Virus record (IMG/VR): IMGVR_UViG_3300046167_000328
Span: 1-58,776 of that record
DNA: 58,776 nt
Origin: a virus
Taxonomy: Duplodnaviria > Caudoviricetes
Reading direction: 5' to 3' (one strand)
Shown here: piece after piece, positions 1,542-55,224 of the stretch
Layout of the letters: each line of letters starts with the position of its first letter
How positions within the stretch are numbered: position 1 is the first letter of the stretch
The notes under the pieces: generated by a model
The model's database searches: none
The model's input: the letters and a program-made list of their open reading frames with translations, nothing else
What the model was told of the DNA's origin: nothing
Position numbers and translations under genes: made by a program

Positions 1542-1575
1542 TATATTATCTTACTTTGTTCGTATTATTTTTGTA
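1542..1575 (-). promoter_or_regulatory. Early promoter-like motif, copy 2
   Basis: + strand tatattatc-N9-tcgtatt-N5-tgta. Confidence 0.8.
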
Positions 1576-1911
1576 ACTAGTGAGGATTCGAACCTCATAA
1601 CCGTCGTTAGCCATAGTCATTATAGGCTCGTAAAAACGTTTACCTATTTCAGTACTAAACCTGACCTAGTTTCCAGCTATTGTGTGATCGTTAATCGTAT
1701 CTTTCGCTATCGGTTTTCATATTTAGATAGAGCTATATACCGTAAAACTCTACTGTTCGCCAGACATTTCCTAATCGCGGTGCACCACTGCCGCTAAGCC
1801 GGTGCGCGTATTTGTTATTTATTCGCTGGATCTATAAACACATTAGAGGATCTTCGTTAGCTTAACCACTTAAAATACCGTAGCCGTACTAAGCCCTCCA
1901 CCGTGTTTATA
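1575..1911 (-). ncRNA. Putative structured non-coding RNA with three abutting domains and a tRNA-like 3' domain
   Basis: ORF-free; closing stems TATAAACAC/GTGTTTATA (1911-1833), TCCAGC/GCTGGA (1830-1672) and AACTAG/CTAGTT (1671-1575); T-arm GAGG-TTCGAAT-CCTC. Confidence 0.65.
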
Positions 1912-2100
1912 TTACTTACGTCGCCAAGATTTATGCACTAATGCACTAAGCTCTTGACTGACTATCTGTATAGTGTTACCGGTTTTGTGCTCTATTATTG
2001 GTATGTAGCTATAATCTTGCACGGTGCTACACGGTGTACACGTCTTGTAACCATAACCTATCCTAATAGGATGTACTTTTTCTCCACATTTACAATACAT
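1912..2100 (-). CDS. Small C4 zinc-finger protein (DksA/TraR-like spacing)
   Basis: CKCGEKVHPIR...KTCTPCS. Confidence 0.55.
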   Translation of the reverse strand: MYCKCGEKVHPIRIGYGYKTCTPCSTVQDYSYIPIIEHKTGNTIQIVSQELSALVHKSWRRK

Positions 2101-2919: not shown

Positions 2920-3344
2920 ATTCTTTTGTATTTAAATCCATCTACCTCAATAACTTCTTGCACTGGCTTCATGTTATAGTTTTTGATTAAGTAGTTTTTT
3001 AGGTACAATAGCCTGTTAACACCTTTGTGTATAAGTACTCGCTGACTGTAGGGATAGCTCTGTATTTCCATATTAGAGCCCATCCAATACCTTATACTTG
3101 TTCTAGTAGGGTTTAGTTGATAGCAAGATAGCTCGTTAAATCTACTTCTTATTATCTTACGTACCATACCTGATTCGTATGTAGCAAACCTATGTCCACT
3201 AAATACTCCACTGGTTAACTCAAACATCCTAGTGTTATTCTTACGTTGGCGATCAGTGGTTACATCTTTTAGAGGAAACTTGTTGGTTAACTCGTTGATG
3301 TACAGTTGTTCTTCTTGTCTAATTCTTTCTAAGTATATACTCAT
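2916..3344 (-). CDS. Hypothetical early protein
   Basis: 142-aa ORF with an A-rich leader. Confidence 0.75.
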   Translation of the reverse strand: MSIYLERIRQEEQLYINELTNKFPLKDVTTDRQRKNNTRMFELTSGVFSGHRFATYESGMVRKIIRSRFNELSCYQLNPTRTSIRYWMGSNMEIQSYPYSQRVLIHKGVNRLLYLKNYLIKNYNMKPVQEVIEVDGFKYKRI

Positions 3345-4536: not shown

Positions 4537-4689
4537 TTAAATAGATTCCCAATATAGTTCTTTTTGTTCGTCGCTTAAACCGTAGAGGTTATCTTGACCA
4601 AACATCTCTTGACAGATTTTAGTTCTTCTTTTGTTTTCATTGAAGGATTTTGTTACCTCATCCCACGCTTGTTGATTAGTTAAATACAT
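4537..4689 (-). CDS. Hypothetical early protein (start revised to ATG 4689, MYLTNQQ)
   Basis: The track's upstream start at 4728 lies inside the tRNA-like hairpin; ATG 4689 has the usual A-rich leader. Confidence 0.65.
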   Translation of the reverse strand: MYLTNQQAWDEVTKSFNENKRRTKICQEMFGQDNLYGLSDEQKELYWESI

Positions 4690-4701
4690 AGTTATTAAAT
4701 T

Positions 4702-4745
4702 TAGTAGTCGTTGGTGGAATCGAACCACCTCTAACCTTTACGACT
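4702..4745 (-). ncRNA. tRNA-like minihelix (acceptor stem plus T-arm only)
   Basis: Minus strand AGTCGT-AAAGGTTAGA-GGTGG-TTCGATT-CCACC-A-ACGACT-ACTA. Confidence 0.6.
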
Positions 4746-4761
4746 TAGATACTCGATAGTA

Positions 4762-4989
4762 CTATTGTTCTAGTACTTCTCGAGCGATCACTGGTACACT
4801 TGTACTTGAAGTGTAAGATTTGTACTTGACGAAACACGCCATATTTTCTAATTTATCCTTCATTACTTCCCACACTTTGTCGTGGTTGTAGGTAACTGTT
4901 TTACCATTTTTGAAGTTGACAGTGATTAGTTGGTTTTTACCAATTAGTGATTTTCTGATTACAAATCTTTTTGAAATTAAAGTTGACAT
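4762..4989 (-). CDS. Small early protein, paralog A
   Basis: Shares SKRF..RKSLI, FKNGKT..YNHD and KYKSYTSSTS with 5510-5740. Confidence 0.85.
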   Translation of the reverse strand: MSTLISKRFVIRKSLIGKNQLITVNFKNGKTVTYNHDKVWEVMKDKLENMACFVKYKSYTSSTSVPVIAREVLEQ

Positions 4990-33523: not shown

Positions 33524-35243
33524 ATGAGTTATAGAAATCCACCTATAATCGTAGATAGATCTACAGACGTTTGGGGAAAAGCAATAGCTGGTTTTGGGCA
33601 ACAAGTTGCTCAAGGAATCTTAAGTGTTAGCGAAGCTAGGAAGAAAAGCGGAAGCAGCTCAAGCAGCTCAAGCTAGAAAAGAAGCTCTTGCTCAACAAAA
33701 GCTAACAACAGCTACTAGAGCATCTTATATGGATGCGGCTAGGGATAAGTACATTCAAATCAAAAAAAATGGTGGGTTAAGCTTAGCTCAGCAATTTATG
33801 AAGCAAGTTGAAATTGATTTAAATGGTGCTGATGGAAAACCAGGGGCTATAGATGCTTCTGTTCAATTAGCTTTAAATACTAGTTTAGGTACAGACCAAA
33901 GAAAAGAGTATAATAAAATAGTAGATGGCGCTAAAATGTATCAAGCTGAAGCTGTTAGTGGTTTTGCAAACGTTATGTCTGGATTAGATTATGCAAAAGA
34001 AAAAGGTGATGATATGCAAACAAAACCTGGAGGTTGGACTTATAAAGGAGGTAATAAGAAGGAAAGATTTTCTAATCAATTATTACACTATGCACTTGAT
34101 ACAGATGTGATGATCAATGATGATGTTATAGAGGACAGAAAGACGTATAAAGGTAAAGAAGGAGAAATATTTGTAGAGGGTATAACATTAGTTCCTGTAG
34201 AACAGTTTAATGAAGGTGGTACTTTTGCGGAAACATTAGATGAAGGTGAATTGAAAGATGTAGAAAAAGTCACTAAAGGAGATAAGGTTTATTATAAATT
34301 TTCTAGCAAAAAAGACGTAAGACAGTGGGATGGTGAGCTTGTAACAGATATTCCAGCTTTACCAGACTATTCTAAGGTTTACCAAGAGGTTAATGTAGAA
34401 AATGATAAGGGTTCTGTAAATACAAACCTAGTAAGTGAAATTGAAAGAACAGAAGGTGGTTACGATGTTAAAGAGAAAATATTAGACATTGGCACTATAA
34501 GAAATAACTTAGAGTCAGTTATGAGCGGTCAAGCTAGTAGAATAATGGCGGGTTCAGATCAAGAAATTCAAGCTTTCCTTACTTTTGGATTAGAAAAAGG
34601 TGGTATGACTATCAAGAAATTCAATGAAACTGAGCAAGATCCTAGTAAAAGAGTAGAATATATAAAAGATGCATTGATAAATGACTCTATTAATAAAAAA
34701 TTCTCAAGTGAATTTGGTAGCACTAGATTAGCTACCGTTGAAGATGTTGAAAGGATAAAAGCAGCTAACCCTAGCTCTACAATAAAAGTAGGTCAAGAAA
34801 TTAGATTTAGCATAGATAAACAAAGTAAGGTTGAACCAGAAGAAACAAGTGAACCAACACAGTTTGAAATAAAAGTAGAAGATGCAATTAAAATAGCTCC
34901 AGAAACACTTGAAAATATGACATCGCCTAAATCTGTAGGTGCTTACTATACAAACAAAAAAATTGGAGGAAAAACTATTATTAACGCAAGAATAAAAACA
35001 TCGACTTCAGAAGTTAAATCACAAGGTAAAACTCCAAAAACACTAGAGTTAGATTTTGTATCAGGATCTACCACTGCCGGAGGTGAAAGAACTGAATTTA
35101 CAGACACTATGAAGTTTGATTTAAATAATCCAACTAGAGTAAAGACGTTGATAGATCTACTTCCTGATAGCGATATCTTAAAGAAACAGTTAAAAGATTT
35201 ATTAAACAAAAAATCAAAGAACGTTAACCAAGATTTTAACTAA
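33524..35243 (+). CDS. Medium ejection protein; likely true start at 33524 with a +1 frameshift at A4 33644-33647
   Basis: MSYRNPPIIVDRSTDVWGKAIAGFGQQVAQG...ARKK joins AEAAQAAQARKE if one A is removed. Confidence 0.7.
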
Positions 35244-35259
35244 TAAAATTAAATAAAAT

Positions 35260-38200
35260 ATGCCAGTAAAAAGATATGAAGTTGACGGTAATCCTTATGA
35301 TGTATCTGATGCCAAAGAACAAGAATTTTTAAGTAAATTTAGTAATGCTGTTTTTATAAATGTTTTAGATGAAGACACTAACGAGTTAGAAGAAACTGTT
35401 GAAACAGTGGAAAAGTTAGACGGTGCTGCAAAAAAGGATGCGGATGTAGTACCAGTAGCAACTCCAAGCAGAGCATCTATAATTGCGGGTGTTCAACCAG
35501 AAGTTACGGAATCACTATCGGTAGATACTTCTTCGGAGTTAGAAGATCCTGAACCTAAAAAATCACAAGAAAGCGGTGAGGTAACTTTAGAGCAGTATAA
35601 AATAATGACTGCTGATCAGAAGAGGAAGTTAAGTTACCGTGACAGGCAAAGGTTACCTAGAGAACTAGCAAAGCAAAAGAAAAAGCTAGAGAACCAAGAT
35701 AGATTAAAAGCCGAGGCAATTGTAGCTGGCAATGTAATAGAAGACAGAATAAAAAATATACCAAAAGAAGACATAGTAGCTGTACAAGCTAATGAGTATT
35801 TTGGACCTATAAAAACCAGAAGCGACAGAACGACTGTAAGTAGAACTATGGTTGGCCAAATGGGTCCAACTGTATCTTTTGAACCCACTTTTGATTCAGA
35901 CGAAAGCTATACTAAATACCTAAAACAAACTTTAGGTGATAAGTATGATCAATACTTAGAATACAATAAAACAAAAGAAATAACACCTCTAAACGATCAA
36001 AACGAGTCTCAATTGAGAGCTATATATGATGAAGCTGAGACAAAGGTCAAAGACAAAGTATACAACAACAGTTTATTCAATGTTTCAGAAGATGTACAAG
36101 AGTACATGGTGGCTAGTCCAAAATTCGCTAGTGGAGCAGAAAGCATAGAAGCTCAAAAGTTTTTAGTTAAAGATCAAGAAGAAACTTTAATAAAAAACAT
36201 TGAAAGTTACAAAACTGCTAAAAAAGAATGGGAGTCTCAAGCTTTGCCGCTTAATAAAGAAATTAAAGATCTTAAGACTCAAATAGATAGATTTACTTTT
36301 TACGCTGAAGGCGCAAGCCAAGAGCAGGCTGATCAATACAATGAACTGATACAAACCTATAACTCTAAAATACAACAATGGGAGGAGAAAGGTTTTAATG
36401 AATTACCGGCTTTTGTAAACTCCCAATACAAACTAGTAAATTCACAGCAAAAGGATTATTCTAAAATGCGTGAAGACTCTAGGAGAGCTTTAATAGACTC
36501 TGATTTATTTGAAAAAAATCTAAAACAAGATTATAGTGCAAGCGCTAGGGTTGGTAGGGTTTTTGATGAGTTTTTTGTACAGTCTACTAGAAACTTTTTA
36601 GACTTAACAGCTGAGTTAGGATTGAAAGGTGCTAAAGCAGCAGGTATAGGCGGATTCACTCCTCTCTCCTTCTTATCAAGCCCAGAAAATTCTGCAAAAG
36701 TAGACTCTGTAATAGAGACAATACAAAAAAATAATAAGAACTACAACTTAAGTATGGCCTCTGAAAGAGAGAACATACCAACATCTCCGTCAATAGATGA
36801 TATAGGTAAAAATGGTTTATCCGTATGGGACTGGACGTCTATAACATTTCAAGATAATTCAGCCACTATAGCTACTACACTTGCGCCAGCACTAGCATCT
36901 TTGAAAGGAGCTTCTGGAGTTAAAGCTGCTTTTAAAACTGCAAGCTATGCTGCTAGGAAAAAAGCTTTGCAAAATCAAAAAAAGCTTTGGTTAGCTGGTA
37001 AAAGAACTGTTCAAGGAACTTTCTTTGTAGCTGAAACAGGTGGTAAATATGGAGAAATGCAAACGGACGAAGCGTCTAGAGAACAAGAAATAAAGTTTTT
37101 ATACTCAAAACTAGATAACACTGAAGACATAGATCAGAAAACTGAAATATATAACAGAATTACTGAACTAGAAGAGGTAGAAGACTACACTCTACTTCAA
37201 AAAGCTTTTACATCTTTTGGAGCTGGAACTACAGCTACGCTTTTTGAGAGTTTAGGTACTTTAAAAATGTTAGAACCAGCTAAAGGTTTAGCTAAGCAAA
37301 TAGGTGTTAAAGCTGCTAAAAAAGAATTATACAAGCAACCAGTTAGATTCGCAGCTAACTTAACAGGCGCAACATTGGCAGGTTTAAAATCTATGCCAAA
37401 GAATATTAGTGGTGAAATAGCAGAAGAAGTACTTACAGAAGTATCTCACAATGGTTTAGATATATTAGTTTTAGATGAAAACAAGTCTATGTTTGAGGGA
37501 ATAAACAAAGATTTTTTAGCAAGTACTGGTTTAAGCACTATTGGTATAATGGGGCCTAAATCAGCTGGTAACGTATTTAACATCATTAAAAGTGAATTTA
37601 GAAGTAAAAGCGAAATATTCAATAACCAGAAATTAGCTAGAGAACTTATAGATCTTAATGAGTCAACAACTCCAGATAATTCAAAACAACTTAGAGGTAG
37701 AAAAAGACAAATATTAAAACAACTAGCGCTTAGCGATGCTATTAGCTTGCATAAGTTAAGGTATATGACAGCAGATCAAATAGAAGAAGTTGCTGACATT
37801 AATAGACAAATGAGGCAAGTTAATGGTAAGTTTAGGCAATTAGGTAATTTAGGTGACTTGGGTGAAGCTGAGAACAAACGAGTTAAAAAACAACTAGAGG
37901 ATGAGTACTCTAGCTTAGCTACCGCTAGGCAAGAACTTCTAGACGCTAAACAAAGATCAAACACTAAGAAGGCTGCAAGCATGAACAAGGCTTTAGGTGA
38001 TGCTGCTCAAAACTCTAACGCTGCTTTTTTATATGGTGTTAATGATTTCTTTAATGAACTCACTATGACTCAAATGGGTGATGGTGATTTTATTTCTATA
38101 GAAAGTGAAATACAAGAAGGTGGTAATATAAAGTACAAAAACCTAGATAAGCAGCTTGCTAAGTATAAAGGCAAAATAGTTAAAGCTATCAACGATGAAA

Positions 38201-41200
38201 CTGGAAAAGAAGTAGATGTTGATGCTTTTGAGTATTTAAAAGAAAACATAGAGAATAACAAGTTTAATGCTACTCAATTATTCGGGGATATTATAGTAAA
38301 CCAAACTGTTATAGATAAAACAATAGCAAGTAAACCAACTGGTACAGATGCTCAGTATGCTGCTATCGCGCCGCTAGAAGAGCTGTTCCATTTAAGTGTA
38401 GCTCAGAAGGGTATAAAGTTTGATACTACAGCTAAAAACGCTGTTCTAGAAGCCGAAAATATACTAAAAGAAAAGAGAGATCTTGGAGTTATTTCTGAAA
38501 AAGACTATAATGGTCTAAAGAAAAGATTTGATCAATATAGAAGTGAAGATAGTAAAGATTTTGACGCTGAAGAATTTATAGCTCAAATGAATAACGCTAT
38601 ATCTTTAGGTGCTATAAACAGATCTGATATAGAATCAGCACCATCATTTAAAAAGTTTTTAAACAACACTATTAGATCCACATTTGGTGATATGTCTTGG
38701 ATGTTGAAGTTAGAAAACTCTGACGATGTTTTTAATCTTGTTAAAAATTTCCAATCAGACGTTTCTAAAGGTGTTACTTTTCAAGCACCTGAAAGAGAAA
38801 AGCTTAAAACATCTCTATCTGAAGATATTCAAAACGAAATAGAAGCACTAGAAGATAGTTATTTTGATGGAGAAATAGATGAGTATCAGTTCGAGCAAAA
38901 GCGCGATAATTTAGATATAAAGCTTAGGCAAGCAGAAGAATCTGAAAAAGCTGAAAAAGCCGCTGCTGTTGAGCAAGTTGAAACTGAAGTAGTAGAAGAT
39001 GTAGACATCAAATCAACAGAGCAAATTAAAAAAATAGATAATATAGTTAAAAAAGCTACTGCGCAAAAACTTGAAGCGCCAAGTATATCTGATAAGAATA
39101 AAAAAATAGCTTCAATTAATGAAGACATTGTAAAAGAAATGACAGCTCTAGGAGCTAATAGAATTTCAGAAATAGAAGATAAAGACATTAGGCAGTCTAT
39201 AGTAGATAGATTAGGTAGAAATAATGTAGGTGCTGTCACAGAGTTAGCAAAAAAAGCAGCTTTTAAAGGTAAAAACTTAGTATTAGATGAAAAACTAAAA
39301 GTAGGTTACGATGAATTTAAAGGAGGTTTTAGCTCGGAGCTATCTTCACTTATAAATTCTTATAAAGCAAATGTTGACGGTAAAGAAGTTCCTTTTGGTG
39401 CTTATATGAACCAAAACCTTCCTCTTAGATACCCTGCAATACTTAGAAGATCTTTAGAAGGTAAACTAAAAAATTCTGAAAGTTTATCTAGTGACAAGAA
39501 TATAAAGAAGGAAGTAGCAAATATCGAAGATGACACTAATCAGTTTGAACTAGGTGGACAAAATGATTCTAGTGAAGTGTTAGAAGTTGATCAGATCGAT
39601 GTAAGAAAGTTTGGACCAGCTAGAGATAAAGTTGATGAAATAGATAAGATAGTACAAGTTGAAGAAGGAGAAAGACCTACGTATAAACAATTAACAAATA
39701 AGTATTTAGACGAAGTATCAATGGAGCTGTTTAATGTTCCAGGTAAGAAAATTAAAGGTGGAGCTACTTTAAAAGATAGTGAAGCTAAATCATTACAAGC
39801 ATTATTTATAAATCCTAATAATGTTAGAAAACTTTTCAAAACAATGCCTCCTTATAATGTTGCTGGTAGTCAAACTACTATAGGTGAGCAGGGTGAGATT
39901 ATTGATGTATCTAAAGATATGAAAGGTGTATCTATAGGATTGTCTAATAAATTTATGAAAAAATTCTATCAGCCAGTTACTAGAGCAATACCCGGTATCT
40001 CTAGTCCAAAAGGTAGAAGTTTAGGTGCTAGTAGTCAAGGACAAGTATATGAATTAAAACCAGAATTTAGAGGTAGAATAACAAACGACGCTATAAAAGA
40101 TATTCAAAGAAGTGTTGGTGTAACTGAAAAAGGTGTTCCGTCTGAAAAAATATCTGATGCTAATAGAAGTAAATATGGTACTACATTAACTGGTTTTGCA
40201 AAAACCTATGTAGCTAACGTTATAAACATTGCGGGTAGATCTAAACAAACCGACAAGCAAGAACAAGCAGATACTGGTGCTGGTAAAGCTAGTATAATGC
40301 TTAGTAAAGCTGATTCAAGTTTCCTTGCTATAACCGGTAAAAATGCTAAAATAGATTTTAATGATAAGAAAATAGTTGAAAAGCTAAAAAAAGATGTGTT
40401 CTCTATACTAGGAAACAAAGAGTTCGATGGCTTTAGTGAAGAAGATTTTGTTAGATATCTACTGCCTTTGGCTACTAAAGGGTATGACTATGGGTTTAAA
40501 ACAGTGGATGGTAAAAAAGTTTTAGTTGAAGACTCTAAAAATACTAGAAACGTAATATTTCAAGGTAGAAAAGACTTCTTTAAGTCTTATAACGAATATA
40601 GAAAAAGCAAAGGTTTAAAAAAGATAACATGGAAACCTAGATTTAGATCTATTACTTTTACAGACTCTTCGGGTAAAAAGAAAACAATAAAGCTAGCTAC
40701 GTTAAAAAATCAATCAGCTGTAGGATTAAACTCAGGTAAATTTATTCAAACACTAGATGATAGAGTTTTAACAGCTCAAGATCAAAGAAATGGTTTAAAG
40801 AGAATTTCAGTAGCTTTAAAGAAGTTTGTTGATGAAAATCCAAATGATGTAACTACTGTACCAATGTTTTTAACTATGTTAAATAGCAACACAGATGGTT
40901 TGGTCAGAACAGCAGCTATACCTAAGTGGATAATGTACAAGGAAGGCTTAAAAGACTCAGACTACGTATATGAACATACTCAAACAGCTTCTGACACTAT
41001 AGTAGAGTTAATGAGGGCTATATACAAAAGTAAAAACAACGCTGAGCTATTGACAGAGTTTGATAATATAATGAAGAACTTTGATGTTGCTATTATTCCT
41101 AAAGAAAACGATATAAAGCTTAATAATAGGTTTAGATATAATGGGCCTAGAGAAGGTGATGTATCAAAAGGAGACTATAAAGTTAAAATTAAATATCCTG

Positions 41201-43377
41201 GAGAAAATGGATTTCCTGTTAGGTATGAAGCAGCTAATAGACTAGATAACGCTGGTATAAAGCTACAATTGCTGTCTGATTTTGCAAATAAAGATACTCA
41301 ATCTAAAGGCACAATAAAACAATCTAAAGCATCTGATCTTAAGTTAAGTAAAGATTTTAACAAGATATTAGAAAACAAATCAGGTATACCTAGTAAAAAG
41401 AAATATGGTATTGTTGAAGCTATAACAAAAGGTGAAAATAAAGGTAGATTTAATTTCTTTATACCTCCTTCAGCAGAAGATTTTGTTGGTTTGTTATATC
41501 CTACTCTTGGTAAAGGTAAAGTTGGTGATGATCAATTAGCTTGGTATAAAGCTAATTTAATAGACCCATTTGCTGAAGCTGTTAACAAGCTTAGTAAAGC
41601 TCGTGTGTATTTAACAAACACTTATAATCAACTTAAAAAGCAATTAGACGTTGTACCTAAGGATTTAGCTAAAAAAATAAAAGGAACAGATTACACTAAA
41701 GAGCAAGCTGTTAGAGTATATATATGGAATAAGCAAAAAATGGATATTCCTGGTATTAGTAAAAGAGATCTTAGTAAGTTAAGTAAGTTTATAGCAGATG
41801 ACGCTAAACTAAAGGCGTTTGCTGATCAACTAATAAACATGCAACTAGGTGATGGTTATGCAAAACCAAAAGAAGGTTGGCCTGCTGGAACTATAACAAC
41901 AGATATACTTGAAGGATTGAACACCGCTAAAAGAGCCAAGTATTTAAAAAATTGGCAATCAAATGTAGACGCTATATTCAGTGATGACAATTTAAATAAG
42001 CTTCAAGCTATATACGGTTTAAATTATAGAAAAGCATTGACTAATATATTAGAAAGGATGAAGACTGGTAGAAATAGAAATTTCCCAGGAGACACTTTAA
42101 CAGGTAGATTTACTGACTGGTTAACTGGTAGTGTTGGTGCAATAATGTTCTTTAATACTAGATCAGCGGTGCTGCAAACAATATCAGCTATAAACTTTAT
42201 AAATTTTAAAGATAATAACATATTCGCAGCCGCTAAAGCATTTGCTAATCAAAAACAATACTGGGCAGACTTTATGACGTTAATGAACTCTGACTTCTTA
42301 AAAGAAAGACGTGGAGGTTTACGTATGAATGTAAACGAAGCAGATATTGCTGACATGGCTAAAAAAGGTGGTGTTAGAGGAGTTATAAGTAAGTTACTAG
42401 AGCTAGGTTTTCTACCTACGCAAATCGCTGATAGTTTTGCAATTGCTTCCGGTGGATCTACTTTCTATAGAAATAGAATTAACACGTACTTAAAACAAAA
42501 GGATGCTAACGGTAATAATTTATATAGTAAAAAATTAGCGGAGAAAAAAGCATTTGAAGATTTTAGAGAAACAGCTGAAGAGTCACAACAGTCGTCTAGA
42601 CCTGATAGAATATCTATGCAACAAGCAAGTTCATTAGGACGTACTGTATTGGCTTTTGCTAACACGCCAGCTCAATATGCTAGAATAATAAAAAAAGCCG
42701 CTAGTGATCTTAAGAATGGCCGAGGGGATCGTAAAGAAAACATATCTAAGATAATTTATTACGGAGTAGCTCAAAACCTTATATTTAACGCTTTACAGCA
42801 AGCTTTATTTGCTCTTGCTTTTAGCGACGAAGAACCTGAAGATGAGAAGAAAGAAGAGAAGTACTTGAACATAGCTAACGGCATGTTAGATTCAATACTT
42901 AGAGGTACTGGAGTTGGTGGTGCTATTGTAACTGTTGGTAAAAACACACTTATCAAAATGGCTAAAGAACTTAAAAAAGACAGGCCTCAACTTAAGAACA
43001 TAGCTCTTGAAGCAGCTAAAATATCTCCTCCTTTAGCGGCAAAATTATCTAGGTTACAACAAGCAGGTAGATCTTATGATTGGAACAAAGAAGAGATGAG
43101 GACAAGAGGTTTAAGTTTAGATAACCCTGCTTTTTTAGCTGGCGCTAATGTTGTTACAGCTTTAACAAATATACCTCTTGACAGAGCTATTAAAAAAGCT
43201 AACAATGTTGTTTCCGCTACTTCACAAGACCTTGAAACCTGGGAACGTATAGGTTTACTTGGAGGTTGGCAAGACTGGGAGTTAGGTATTGACAAAAAAG
43301 ATAAAAAAGAAAAGAAAAAACCAAGTAAAATTACAAGAAAAAAAGGAGTAATTAGAAAAAGAGTAACAAGAAAGTAG
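35260..43377 (+). CDS. Giant multidomain ejection/internal virion protein (2705 aa)
   Basis: Size, position after two ejection genes, helical C-terminal region; internal zincin-like, sigma-2-like and HNH-like segments. Confidence 0.8.
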   Translation: MPVKRYEVDGNPYDVSDAKEQEFLSKFSNAVFINVLDEDTNELEETVETVEKLDGAAKKDADVVPVATPSRASIIAGVQPEVTESLSVDTSSELEDPEPKKSQESGEVTLEQYKIMTADQKRKLSYRDRQRLPRELAKQKKKLENQDRLKAEAIVAGNVIEDRIKNIPKEDIVAVQANEYFGPIKTRSDRTTVSRTMVGQMGPTVSFEPTFDSDESYTKYLKQTLGDKYDQYLEYNKTKEITPLNDQNESQLRAIYDEAETKVKDKVYNNSLFNVSEDVQEYMVASPKFASGAESIEAQKFLVKDQEETLIKNIESYKTAKKEWESQALPLNKEIKDLKTQIDRFTFYAEGASQEQADQYNELIQTYNSKIQQWEEKGFNELPAFVNSQYKLVNSQQKDYSKMREDSRRALIDSDLFEKNLKQDYSASARVGRVFDEFFVQSTRNFLDLTAELGLKGAKAAGIGGFTPLSFLSSPENSAKVDSVIETIQKNNKNYNLSMASERENIPTSPSIDDIGKNGLSVWDWTSITFQDNSATIATTLAPALASLKGASGVKAAFKTASYAARKKALQNQKKLWLAGKRTVQGTFFVAETGGKYGEMQTDEASREQEIKFLYSKLDNTEDIDQKTEIYNRITELEEVEDYTLLQKAFTSFGAGTTATLFESLGTLKMLEPAKGLAKQIGVKAAKKELYKQPVRFAANLTGATLAGLKSMPKNISGEIAEEVLTEVSHNGLDILVLDENKSMFEGINKDFLASTGLSTIGIMGPKSAGNVFNIIKSEFRSKSEIFNNQKLARELIDLNESTTPDNSKQLRGRKRQILKQLALSDAISLHKLRYMTADQIEEVADINRQMRQVNGKFRQLGNLGDLGEAENKRVKKQLEDEYSSLATARQELLDAKQRSNTKKAASMNKALGDAAQNSNAAFLYGVNDFFNELTMTQMGDGDFISIESEIQEGGNIKYKNLDKQLAKYKGKIVKAINDETGKEVDVDAFEYLKENIENNKFNATQLFGDIIVNQTVIDKTIASKPTGTDAQYAAIAPLEELFHLSVAQKGIKFDTTAKNAVLEAENILKEKRDLGVISEKDYNGLKKRFDQYRSEDSKDFDAEEFIAQMNNAISLGAINRSDIESAPSFKKFLNNTIRSTFGDMSWMLKLENSDDVFNLVKNFQSDVSKGVTFQAPEREKLKTSLSEDIQNEIEALEDSYFDGEIDEYQFEQKRDNLDIKLRQAEESEKAEKAAAVEQVETEVVEDVDIKSTEQIKKIDNIVKKATAQKLEAPSISDKNKKIASINEDIVKEMTALGANRISEIEDKDIRQSIVDRLGRNNVGAVTELAKKAAFKGKNLVLDEKLKVGYDEFKGGFSSELSSLINSYKANVDGKEVPFGAYMNQNLPLRYPAILRRSLEGKLKNSESLSSDKNIKKEVANIEDDTNQFELGGQNDSSEVLEVDQIDVRKFGPARDKVDEIDKIVQVEEGERPTYKQLTNKYLDEVSMELFNVPGKKIKGGATLKDSEAKSLQALFINPNNVRKLFKTMPPYNVAGSQTTIGEQGEIIDVSKDMKGVSIGLSNKFMKKFYQPVTRAIPGISSPKGRSLGASSQGQVYELKPEFRGRITNDAIKDIQRSVGVTEKGVPSEKISDANRSKYGTTLTGFAKTYVANVINIAGRSKQTDKQEQADTGAGKASIMLSKADSSFLAITGKNAKIDFNDKKIVEKLKKDVFSILGNKEFDGFSEEDFVRYLLPLATKGYDYGFKTVDGKKVLVEDSKNTRNVIFQGRKDFFKSYNEYRKSKGLKKITWKPRFRSITFTDSSGKKKTIKLATLKNQSAVGLNSGKFIQTLDDRVLTAQDQRNGLKRISVALKKFVDENPNDVTTVPMFLTMLNSNTDGLVRTAAIPKWIMYKEGLKDSDYVYEHTQTASDTIVELMRAIYKSKNNAELLTEFDNIMKNFDVAIIPKENDIKLNNRFRYNGPREGDVSKGDYKVKIKYPGENGFPVRYEAANRLDNAGIKLQLLSDFANKDTQSKGTIKQSKASDLKLSKDFNKILENKSGIPSKKKYGIVEAITKGENKGRFNFFIPPSAEDFVGLLYPTLGKGKVGDDQLAWYKANLIDPFAEAVNKLSKARVYLTNTYNQLKKQLDVVPKDLAKKIKGTDYTKEQAVRVYIWNKQKMDIPGISKRDLSKLSKFIADDAKLKAFADQLINMQLGDGYAKPKEGWPAGTITTDILEGLNTAKRAKYLKNWQSNVDAIFSDDNLNKLQAIYGLNYRKALTNILERMKTGRNRNFPGDTLTGRFTDWLTGSVGAIMFFNTRSAVLQTISAINFINFKDNNIFAAAKAFANQKQYWADFMTLMNSDFLKERRGGLRMNVNEADIADMAKKGGVRGVISKLLELGFLPTQIADSFAIASGGSTFYRNRINTYLKQKDANGNNLYSKKLAEKKAFEDFRETAEESQQSSRPDRISMQQASSLGRTVLAFANTPAQYARIIKKAASDLKNGRGDRKENISKIIYYGVAQNLIFNALQQALFALAFSDEEPEDEKKEEKYLNIANGMLDSILRGTGVGGAIVTVGKNTLIKMAKELKKDRPQLKNIALEAAKISPPLAAKLSRLQQAGRSYDWNKEEMRTRGLSLDNPAFLAGANVVTALTNIPLDRAIKKANNVVSATSQDLETWERIGLLGGWQDWELGIDKKDKKEKKKPSKITRKKGVIRKRVTRK

Positions 43378-54462: not shown

Positions 54463-55224
54463 TTAAAGATAGTCAAGCACTTGCGAGTGGTCTACGCTAT
54501 CAATTAATTTTTCTACAGCAGACTTTTTTAGCTCAGAAACTCTTACATAAGAGCTTGTACCTTTTATCTCTAGTATTTCTGCTATTTTTTTTGCAGGTAA
54601 TTTATCACAGTCTAAACCATAAGATAATCTTAATACTTCGTACTCTAAATTGTTTAAGTGTTTTTGCATTAAACCTTTTAGATACAAATTAAGTAGCTGT
54701 ATATTATACGGCTCTGATTTGTCTGGTATTTGGTACATAGTATTTTCTTCATCATCATTAAGTTGCTGAGAGTCTATTGATAAAAATATAGAGTTAAAAA
54801 ACATAGAAACCATTTTCTTGTCTTTAGGATTTTTACGTATCTCATTTAGTTTATGTTCTGGTATACGTATATCTCCTCTGTTGATGTCTATACGTCTTCT
54901 AATGGCTCCTTTTATACGTTTAGACAGAAAGCTTTTTAATGTTTTTTCCGTGTCGTTAGATTCCATAAGTCTAGACATTTCTAATTTATCAACAGCTCTT
55001 GTCAATGCTTCATTACCTATTTGAATTAGATCATTTATAGATAAAACACCTGAAGCTTGTTGTGATGTAGAAAACTTACGTGCTAAATTTTCAACTAAAG
55101 GTAAAAACTTAACTATCAACTCATCTCTAGTATATTCGTCCCAAAACTTACCTTCGATATTCATTATAGATGTTTTAACATCTTCTTTATATCTTATGTA
55201 GTTCTGTATATTATATTTCTTCAT
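54463..55224 (-). CDS. Sigma-70 family RNA polymerase sigma factor
   Basis: Region 2 LPLVENLARKF...DLIQIGNEALTRAVDK...RIKGAI; IRIP; region 4 EVLRLSYGL...KIAEIL...RVSELKKSAVEKL. Confidence 0.9.
   Translation of the reverse strand: MKKYNIQNYIRYKEDVKTSIMNIEGKFWDEYTRDELIVKFLPLVENLARKFSTSQQASGVLSINDLIQIGNEALTRAVDKLEMSRLMESNDTEKTLKSFLSKRIKGAIRRRIDINRGDIRIPEHKLNEIRKNPKDKKMVSMFFNSIFLSIDSQQLNDDEENTMYQIPDKSEPYNIQLLNLYLKGLMQKHLNNLEYEVLRLSYGLDCDKLPAKKIAEILEIKGTSSYVRVSELKKSAVEKLIDSVDHSQVLDYL

Follow-up and report, generated by a model that had tools for sequence, protein, structure and literature searches.

Predicted modular structured RNAs, including a tRNA-shaped element, in an ORF-free gap of a marine phage genome

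Introduction

In phages, tRNA genes are commonly interpreted in one of two ways, as aids to codon usage or as substitutes for tRNAs that host defences have cleaved. What, then, is encoded in a phage gap that holds no predicted tRNA gene and whose position is occupied by tRNA genes in relatives? The gap analysed here lies in the IMG/VR virus record IMGVR_UViG_3300046167_000328 (58,776 bp; completeness estimate, 91%), the whole of which is called the window. The window encodes GroEL/GroES, terminase, portal, ribonucleotide reductase, primase-helicase, and a 2705-aa protein without a family match. Its terminase shares 44–63% identity with those of Flavobacterium, Cellulophaga, Tenacibaculum, and Maribacter phages, which places the phage near them. 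An initial annotation had proposed that the gap contains a single 337-nt RNA made of three helically closed domains on the minus strand (1575–1911), an early phage RNA acting as a protein sponge, decoy, or processing scaffold.

Results

Gene context of the gap and its relatives

Small ORFs follow one another on this part of the minus strand, and the gap separates one of 62 aa with four cysteines (1912–2100) from one of 98 aa (1228–1524). The gap is ORF-free, as first described: no minus-strand ORF of at least 30 aa was present between the zinc-finger stop codon (1912) and the next start codon (1524), and the gap contains just two short plus-strand ORFs of 33 and 37 aa. The features of the region are as follows.

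1912–2100, minus strand: zinc-finger ORF, 62 aa, CxC...CxxC; stop codon at 1912, with the array directly after it
1833–1911, minus strand: M1, stacked hairpin with four helices; 13 distinct homologs (alignment A3)
1760–1829, minus strand: M2; 88 distinct sequences among the matches listed (alignment A5)
1711–1752, minus strand: M3; 25 distinct homologs, core almost invariant
1674–1709, minus strand: linker hairpin, directly 5′ of M4
1573–1672, minus strand: M4, four-way junction; 39 distinct sequences (alignment A1)
1570–1572, minus strand: short 3′ trailer of M4, AAA after C1573; conserved, consensus ACAAA/ACUAA

The zinc-finger ORF had 158 confirmed relatives in IMG/VR with 73–90% identity, always immediately upstream of the RNA island, and 80 of the 158 loci were kept. 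The 62-aa protein had no Pfam match. Searches of 50,697 GenBank phage records with the ORF (tblastn) and with the array region (blastn) gave zero matches each, and no cultured relative carrying the island was found there. A T-loop motif was present within 1 kb downstream of the zinc-finger gene in 74 of the 77 loci with enough downstream DNA, and true tRNA-Met or tRNA-Gln genes occupied the island position in many loci (42 ARAGORN calls in 106 loci). Because of this T-loop motif and these tRNA genes, the gap is regarded as the local version of a conserved tRNA/RNA island. The array may be part of a hypervariable "RNA island" downstream of a conserved zinc-finger gene in marine Flavobacteriia-type phages, a placement that shares the evenly balanced likelihood of the overall explanation to which it belongs.

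No RNA-binding or RNA-processing protein was recognised among the 57 window ORFs scanned by Pfam and the 13 scanned by PHROGs. In the structural region, the 2705-aa ORF (35260–43377) and a 539-aa ORF (33624–35243) had no PHROGs or Pfam match.

Search for known RNA families

The absence of a known RNA family, claimed in the initial annotation, held in a search against the 4227 families of Rfam, which gave no match in the region. The whole window had 0 matches at the gathering threshold, and the search over 1400–2100 at E values up to 10 returned three chance-level matches only, all with E of at least 3. Individual families were absent as well: tRNA (RF00005) at the gathering threshold and at E up to 10 in 1400–2100, and tmRNA (RF00023) in the window, even at E up to 10 in 1400–2100. 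Rfam gave no match to M1–M4 in 20 related loci. ARAGORN with default settings found 0 genes in the window; its relaxed, intron, tmRNA, and mitochondrial modes gave implausible calls only, which were rejected. A full-text literature search found no description of the M1–M4 RNAs, and as far as these searches reach, M1, M2, M3, and M4 appear to have neither an Rfam family nor a published description.

Strand, folding, and repeated words

The region had been described as a structured non-coding RNA on the minus strand, and the strand was borne out: the z score of the minimum free energy (MFE) fold was −1.61 on the minus strand versus +0.05 on the plus strand, and G-U pairs were strand-specific. 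Many of the conserved G-U pairs in the M1 and M4 alignments would become A-C on the opposite strand. The folding energy of the whole 337 nt (−86.8 kcal/mol, z −1.61 on the minus strand) was not clearly above chance, with 5 of 100 shuffles equal or better.

All helices and words named in the initial annotation were present in the sequence on direct reading, including the 9-bp stem of domain I (UAUAAACAC/GUGUUUAUA, 1911–1903 / 1841–1833), GGAGG/CCUCU, the CGCG-CACC hairpin, and the UAGAGU/GCUCUA hairpin. The 8-mer UACGGUAU, reported as shared between the loops of two domains, does occur at 1882–1875 and 1744–1737, but its repetition is at chance level: at least one repeated 8-mer arose in 55% of mononucleotide shuffles and in 69% of first-order Markov simulations. 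The repeated 8-mers in the 337 nt were TACGGTAT and GCTAACGA. The copy of UACGGUAU in the M1 loop was missing from 4 of the 13 M1 homologs.

Modular arrangement of the gap

Relatives were searched in IMG/VR and marine metagenome contigs, and four modules were defined by iterated nhmmer. When the 337 nt were compared by blastn with 106 related loci, an end-to-end alignment was obtained on one contig alone (L081/L087, 81% identity). The other matches were isolated pieces (query positions 1–72, 83–152, 161–203, and 294–337) whose orders differed. Of the 80 zinc-finger-adjacent loci, 7 carried M1, 8 M2, 7 M3, and 23 M4, with the order varying. The orders found were M1-M2-M3-M4 (the window), M1-M3-M4, M3-M1, M4-M2-miniature tmRNA, and M1-M4-M3-M4. 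These comparisons indicate that the gap is a set of several independently folding small RNAs, arranged as mosaic cassettes, rather than one long RNA.

The original proposal, a single 337-nt RNA whose three helically closed domains work as a whole, is very improbable. The MFE fold yields three closed domains, nearly the whole stretch is kept in L081/L087, and one RNA-library contig spans 1647–1897, across the M1–M4 boundaries, all of which would suit a single molecule. Against it, the modules stand alone or reordered in most relatives, and the 8-mer shared by the loops is no more than chance would give. Domain I, corresponding to M1, holds up as a helically closed unit with covariation. Domain II, by contrast, dissolved into M2, M3, and the linker hairpin, and its closure (UCCAGC/GCUGGA) was not conserved: it is missing where M3 directly abuts M4 (L002 and L082), and a covarying local M2 stem takes its place.

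Among the matches listed, the downstream context of M2 contained a tRNA-like 5′ end within 16 nt in 73 of 106 distinct contexts; the element was of the miniature tmRNA type in 47, M4 in 19, and of another type in 7. Likewise among the matches listed, M3 followed M2 in 11 of the 106 contexts, as in the window, and the 3′ end of M4 was within 12 nt upstream of M2 in 35. In relatives, a spacing of 3–5 nt also separated M4 from a true tRNA-Met gene or a miniature tmRNA downstream, and the next tRNA, tRNA-like element, or M2 began 0–5 nt past the M4 trailer.

Hairpins were exchanged between modules. The hairpin CGCGCACCGG...GGUGCACCGCG is inside M2 in the window and inside the M4 D-loop in L033/L036. 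The hairpin AUAGGAACUCAG..GAGAUACGUG forms the M1 tip in L063, L130, and L146 and occurs in another frame in L007, L009, and L013, and AGGAACUCAG...GAGAUAC is common to the M1 tip and another frame. The M4 apical motif GUAAACGUUUUCACGAGC is carried on four different covarying stems.

CTAG-rich junction words recur at module borders, such as UAGCUAGACGAGUAGCUUAAUUAG ... ACAUAAGUGAAUAGCUAGCGG (L006–L009, L033, L041, and others, at about 3185–3300), and the window carries the junction word AAUAGCUGG (1684–1673). AAUAGC is present on both flanks where M3 and the linker are inserted. The CTAG-rich words may provide microhomology for cassette shuffling, or they may belong to a further RNA frame.

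Structures of M1 and M2

Covariation was judged by pair counts versus 500 shuffles and by sliding partner columns by 1–3. Compensatory changes, the check that had been suggested for this RNA, were found for M1, M2, and M4, and sliding the partners in these three alignments cut pairing to 15–48%. The helices of M1 and the closing stem of M2 are given below.

1911–1903 / 1841–1833, minus strand: M1 P1
1899–1895 / 1849–1845, minus strand: M1 P2, GGAGG/CCUCU
1892–1889 / 1860–1857, minus strand: M1 P3, UUAG/CUAA
1884–1880 / 1869–1865, minus strand: M1 P4, GCUAC/GUGGU
1829–1826 / 1763–1760, minus strand: M2 closing stem P1, CCAG/CUGG

In the 13 M1 homologs, 94% of cells were paired, double changes occurred in 9 of 22 pairs, and the covariation score was reached by 0 of 500 shuffles. 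The joining strands GC, UACG, UAAG, and CGAAGAU were invariant. The tip varied from 4 to about 31 nt, with UACGGUAU located there in part of the family only. The outer stem was broken in some relatives (L076-type), and pair cells were unpaired in up to 5 of the 13 homologs. The previously named GCUUAG/UUAAGC pairing was in the wrong register; covariation favoured UUAG/CUAA, with U-A replaced by C-G in 4 of 13.

In M2, an asymmetric internal loop (CGAAUAAAUAACAAA // UUAGGAAAUG) lies within P1, together with an inner hairpin (CGCG-CACC...GGUG-CAC-CGCG) that is exchangeable and of which at least three unrelated types were found. Among the matches listed, which comprised 88 distinct sequences, double changes in P1 occurred in 5 of 7 pairs, and 0 of 500 shuffles reached the score; a smaller M2 set gave the same covariation result for P1. 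Forms of the closing stem included CCCAG/CUGGG, GUGCAG/CUGCAC, AUCCAG/CUGGAU, CUUAG/CUAAG, and AUCGUAG/CUACGAU. The strong covariation of this local CCAG/CUGG pairing stands in place of the proposed domain II closure, and the CUG-GCGAA-CAG hairpin assigned to domain II clashes with it. A scan with the two invariant loop strands found M2 in at least 119 marine metagenome contigs; these strands were invariant or nearly so, but they belonged to the search pattern.

By eye, the internal loops of M1 and M2 fitted none of the K-turn, loop-E, and tetraloop-receptor motifs. The 5′ loop strand of M2 (1825–1811, minus strand, in all M2 copies) reads GCG AAU AAA UAA, i.e., Ala-Asn-Lys-stop, and M2 was most often immediately upstream of a miniature tmRNA (47 of 106 contexts among the matches listed). 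A tmRNA-like tag frame was rejected, because M2 is 5′ of the acceptor, where the decoding site is out of reach.

M3 and the linker hairpin

The hairpin of M3 and the linker consist of the following parts.

1752–1747 / 1733–1728, minus strand: M3 hairpin UAGAGU/GCUCUA, with the 13-nt loop UUUACGGUAUAUA
to 1711, minus strand: conserved M3 tail AAAUAUGAAAACCG
1709–1706 / 1677–1674, minus strand: linker hairpin stem UAGC/GCUG

Just two changes were found in the M3 stem, with pairing kept in both (U-G to C-G in L017 and A-U to G-U in L205). The M3 hairpin does not have covariation support, because its sequence is nearly invariant; it is plausible as a predicted structure. In addition, a loop-tail pseudoknot (CGGU/ACCG or GUUUU/AAAAC) is possible. 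The loop of the linker hairpin begins with GAAA, followed by a 24-nt insert. Direct reading of six relatives gave UGGC/GCCG as the linker stem, amounting to one compensatory change (A-U to G-C), and in L145 the hairpin was shrunk to GGC-GAAA-GCC.

M4, an anticodon-less tRNA-like cloverleaf

The tRNA-like character ascribed to domain III was upheld by the T-arm UGAGG-UUCGAAU-CCUCA at 1597–1581, and the domain corresponds to M4, whose parts are listed here.

1671–1666 / 1580–1575, minus strand: acceptor AACUAG/CUAGUU; A1672 is mismatched to A1574, followed by C1573
1665–1663 / 1612–1610, minus strand: D-like stem GUC/GGC, 3 bp, with GG next (1661–1660)
1659–1613, minus strand: long inserted hairpin, apical motif GUAAACGUUUUUACGAGC at 1643–1626
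1609–1598, minus strand: mini-hairpin UAAC-GACG-GUUA
1597–1581, minus strand: T-arm, loop UUCGAAU

In the 39 sequences, 99.4% of cells were paired and double changes occurred in 8 of 17 pairs, a result matched by 0 of 500 shuffles. The U-U-C-G-A of the T-loop was invariant, and four of the five pairs of the 5-bp T-stem covaried. The GG after the D-like stem was at least 90% conserved, and all 39 sequences had a 4-bp stem with a GACG tetraloop at the position of the anticodon arm. The D-like stem was GUC/GGC, GUC/GAC, GUA/UAC, GUG/UAC, or GUU/GAC, and the mini-hairpin varied as CC/GG, CU/AG, AC/GU, or GC/GC. The hairpin inserted between GG and the 3′ strand of the D-like stem was highly variable in length and sequence (about 50 nt in the window); in L007 and L012 the insert was 0 nt, so that the whole element was 57–59 nt. 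The covariance model R1 found 29 copies in 85 sources.

The acceptor did not vary in the main subfamily, so the case for its helix comes from G-U variation (3 of 38) and from the covarying acceptors of three divergent copies, AACCAA/UUGGUU, AACUAA/UUAGUU, and GAUUAA/UUAAUC. Position 1 was mismatched to A72 in most copies, and no CCA was encoded. A 24-mer from the 3′ end of M4 had one match across the genomes of 185,579 species, on a 716-bp MAG contig, which indicates that M4 is a phage RNA and not a host RNA at that stringency.

M4 shares the acceptor/T-arm stack, the T-loop UUCRA, and the D-loop GG with tRNA, and differs from it in having no anticodon arm with a 7-nt loop. Its acceptor does not contain the G3-U70 pair of tmRNA, and a D-like stem and an extra GACG hairpin are present. 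Judged from these sequence features, M4 is tRNA-shaped, with a 7-position acceptor, a D-like arm with GG, and a canonical T-arm, but is neither tRNA nor tmRNA.

Could the region instead consist of decayed tRNA genes, or of a recombination or protein-binding region acting at the DNA level, with no RNA function? The position is held by tRNA genes in relatives, ARAGORN finds no tRNA in the window, and CTAG-rich sequences recur at module borders. Such an origin is nonetheless extremely improbable, given that compensatory changes preserve four helices of M4, four helices of M1, and the M2 stem across many lineages, that the conserved G-U pairs are strand-specific, and that contigs of the region are present in RNA libraries.

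A second, smaller tRNA-like element was observed in the window at 4700–4745 on the minus strand, between the ORF at 4762–4989 and the ATG at 4689. It has a 6-bp acceptor-like stem (AGUCGU/ACGACU), a AAAGGUUAGA strand, a canonical T-arm (GGUGG-UUCGAUU-CCACC), and an ACUAAA trailer. The element is kept in relatives, where its acceptor covaries (GUCAC/GUGAC and GACGU/ACGUC) and an insert is sometimes present (L076).

Miniature tmRNAs in the same island

Miniature tmRNAs that scored 53–65 bits with the Rfam tmRNA model, versus a gathering score of 47, were found in the island of 7 of the 20 related loci. They are 81–83 nt long and consist of the tRNA-like domain alone; none was found in the window. 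By reading, their acceptor is GGGGGUG/CACCUCC, with a G3-U70 pair. Their positions are as follows.

L006: 3481–3561
L007: 3437–3519
L012: 3540–3620
L041: 3494–3575
L043: 3545–3625
L063: 3543–3625
L071: 3491–3572

Transcription context and RNA libraries

No sigma-70-like promoter or intrinsic terminator was found between the upstream ORF and M4. A TATAAT-containing motif, GATAATATAATAAAC, is located at 1550–1536 (minus strand), 12–25 nt upstream of the ATG of the ORF at 1228–1524, and may be a promoter; the same motif precedes the first post-island ORF in L006, L007, and L063. The window encodes a sigma-70 region-2-like protein (54463–55224).

Among 24 listed sequencing runs, most of the stretch was present as DNA in 14, and a small share was present in six RNA runs. 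Metatranscriptome contigs covered 1541–1914 in three of the four runs examined, the four runs coming from four studies and these three from three; being assembled contigs, they indicate presence in RNA libraries but not the termini, strand, or abundance of any RNA, and they may contain DNA and combine several relatives. Depth was zero over 1940–2050, in the neighbouring ORF, in all four RNA runs. The downstream ORF was also covered in one RNA run, and run X20 covered 1200–1346 only. The contig ends at 1671 and 1906 were rejected as RNA ends, since contigs have loose ends and break where relatives diverge. Joints in metatranscriptome contigs (1750–1835 and 1707–1840, within 1200–2300) fit relatives with reordered modules and were not taken as evidence for splicing.

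The modules could also be cis-acting parts of mRNA, either stabilisers of the 3′ end of the zinc-finger operon or regulatory leaders, with no function as free RNAs. The array directly follows the upstream stop codon without a promoter or terminator, and the conserved TATAAT-containing motif (1550–1536) between the array and the next ORF suggests that a transcription unit ends with the array. We consider this reading quite improbable; a 3′ stabiliser would not need internal loops that do not vary, hairpins that are exchanged, modules that are multiplied and shuffled, or a canonical T-loop/GG elbow.

Discussion

The explanation that we prefer, and to which we give an even chance, is that the gap encodes a co-transcribed precursor of independently folding RNAs, which is punctuated by tRNA-like elements, cut by host RNase P and RNase Z, and yields scaffolds with exchangeable hairpins. 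The gap (1573–1911, minus strand) would be transcribed as one precursor containing M1, M2, M3, the linker hairpin, and M4. RNase P recognises a T-loop, a GG elbow, and an acceptor/T stack of 12 positions, and RNase P and RNase Z process tRNA-like structures in non-tRNA transcripts, thereby defining neighbouring RNA ends, according to PMC4919922. In M4, host RNase P would cut the 5′ end, and RNase Z or exonucleases would trim the 3′ end; the processing route of MALAT1/mascRNA and of tRNA clusters is taken as the model. Because such cuts would fall at the tRNA-like elements, the precursor would be punctuated by them, and helix-closed, nuclease-resistant small RNAs would be released. The "processing scaffold" idea of the initial annotation would fit the tRNA-like punctuation in relatives. 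Several observations weigh against the preferred explanation: the 1:72 mismatch of M4 and its missing CCA, the marginal folding of the region as a whole, the invariance of M3, the outer M1 stem that is broken in some relatives, and the failure to recognise an RNA-binding or RNA-processing protein in the ORFs scanned.

The scaffolds would be M1, M2, and M4, each with covarying stems, invariant internal loops, and a position for swapped hairpins. In the least certain step, they would bind and titrate a host or phage protein as a decoy or sponge. A pattern of invariant loops and exchangeable hairpins suits protein-binding decoys and an arms race, as far as the alignments suggest.

M4 and its kin might, alternatively, serve mainly as tRNA mimics that are matured, CCA-added, and perhaps aminoacylated, and that occupy or titrate a tRNA-binding factor, such as an aminoacyl-tRNA synthetase, EF-Tu, the CCA-adding enzyme, a modification enzyme, or a defence toxin targeting the acceptor end. 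Sequence-specific reading of M4 is suggested by its acceptor and ACAAA trailer, which do not vary although the other stems covary. In addition, tRNA-like-domain-only tmRNA elements occur in the same island in 7 of 20 loci. A phage "TLD only" tmRNA, that of mycobacteriophage DS6A, has been proposed to titrate SmpB (PMC4131195); this tmRNA tRNA-like domain is, like M4, a phage-encoded tRNA mimic without an anticodon arm. M4 itself has no G3-U70 pair, its 1:72 position is mismatched in most copies, and no partner protein was found among the scanned ORFs. A role mainly as a tRNA mimic is unlikely, and it is compatible with the punctuated precursor that we prefer.

A more speculative extension of the precursor reading, tentative and on the doubtful side, is a natural "RNA display": a recombining island in which scaffolds M1 and M2 and anticodon-less tRNA-like bodies, released by host tRNA-processing enzymes, would present hairpins that neutralise host factors, and in which the miniature tmRNAs would block ribosome rescue. 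The targets would be a host RNA-binding defence or translation factor, and the hairpins would be swapped between scaffolds as an arms-race repertoire.

A widespread marine phage group keeps non-decoding tRNA-shaped RNAs together with at least two further conserved structured motifs that are absent from Rfam. Pull-downs and structural studies could be aimed directly at the invariant internal loop of M2 and at the GACG mini-hairpin. Should processing and decoy activity both prove true, these RNAs would found a new class of host-takeover or anti-defence factors based on RNA.

Comparison with known systems

Bacterial Y RNA (YrlA) has an RNA module that mimics the T-arm, D-arm, and acceptor, as PMC4201824 describes. 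In M4, the RNA termini are in the acceptor, not in a Ro-binding stem; Rfam gave no Y RNA match at E up to 10, and no Ro/TROVE domain was found in the 57 ORFs scanned by Pfam.

In the tRNA cluster of phage T4, the stable RNAs called species 1 and 2 lie among the tRNA genes and are co-transcribed and processed alongside them, with unknown function. The window, in contrast, has no canonical tRNA, and the likeness is one of description alone.

The nearest Rfam model to M4 was mascRNA-menRNA (RF01684), to which the minimal 57-nt form from L007 aligned over its full length with 22.9 bits (E 0.0045), short of the gathering score of 42.5; the window copy gave no match. The mascRNA and menRNA elements, from the 3′ ends of MALAT1 and MEN-beta, are, like M4, small cloverleaves with a 3-bp D arm, a shortened arm replacing the anticodon arm, and a T-arm. 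They are eukaryotic and nuclear, whereas M4 adds a large exchangeable D-loop hairpin, and its processing is conjectured from its shape. Because the family is eukaryotic and nuclear and the score was sub-threshold, the likeness is regarded as analogy and not homology.

In the engineered "tRNA scaffold", a tRNA body folds, is processed, and stabilises an inserted hairpin that replaces the anticodon arm. The natural inserts here occupy the D-loop in M4, the hairpin tip in M1, and the inner helix in M2. Provided that the RNAs are processed and act as decoys as modelled, the array would be the bacterial-virus counterpart of the MALAT1/mascRNA mechanism and a naturally occurring equivalent of the laboratory tRNA scaffold.
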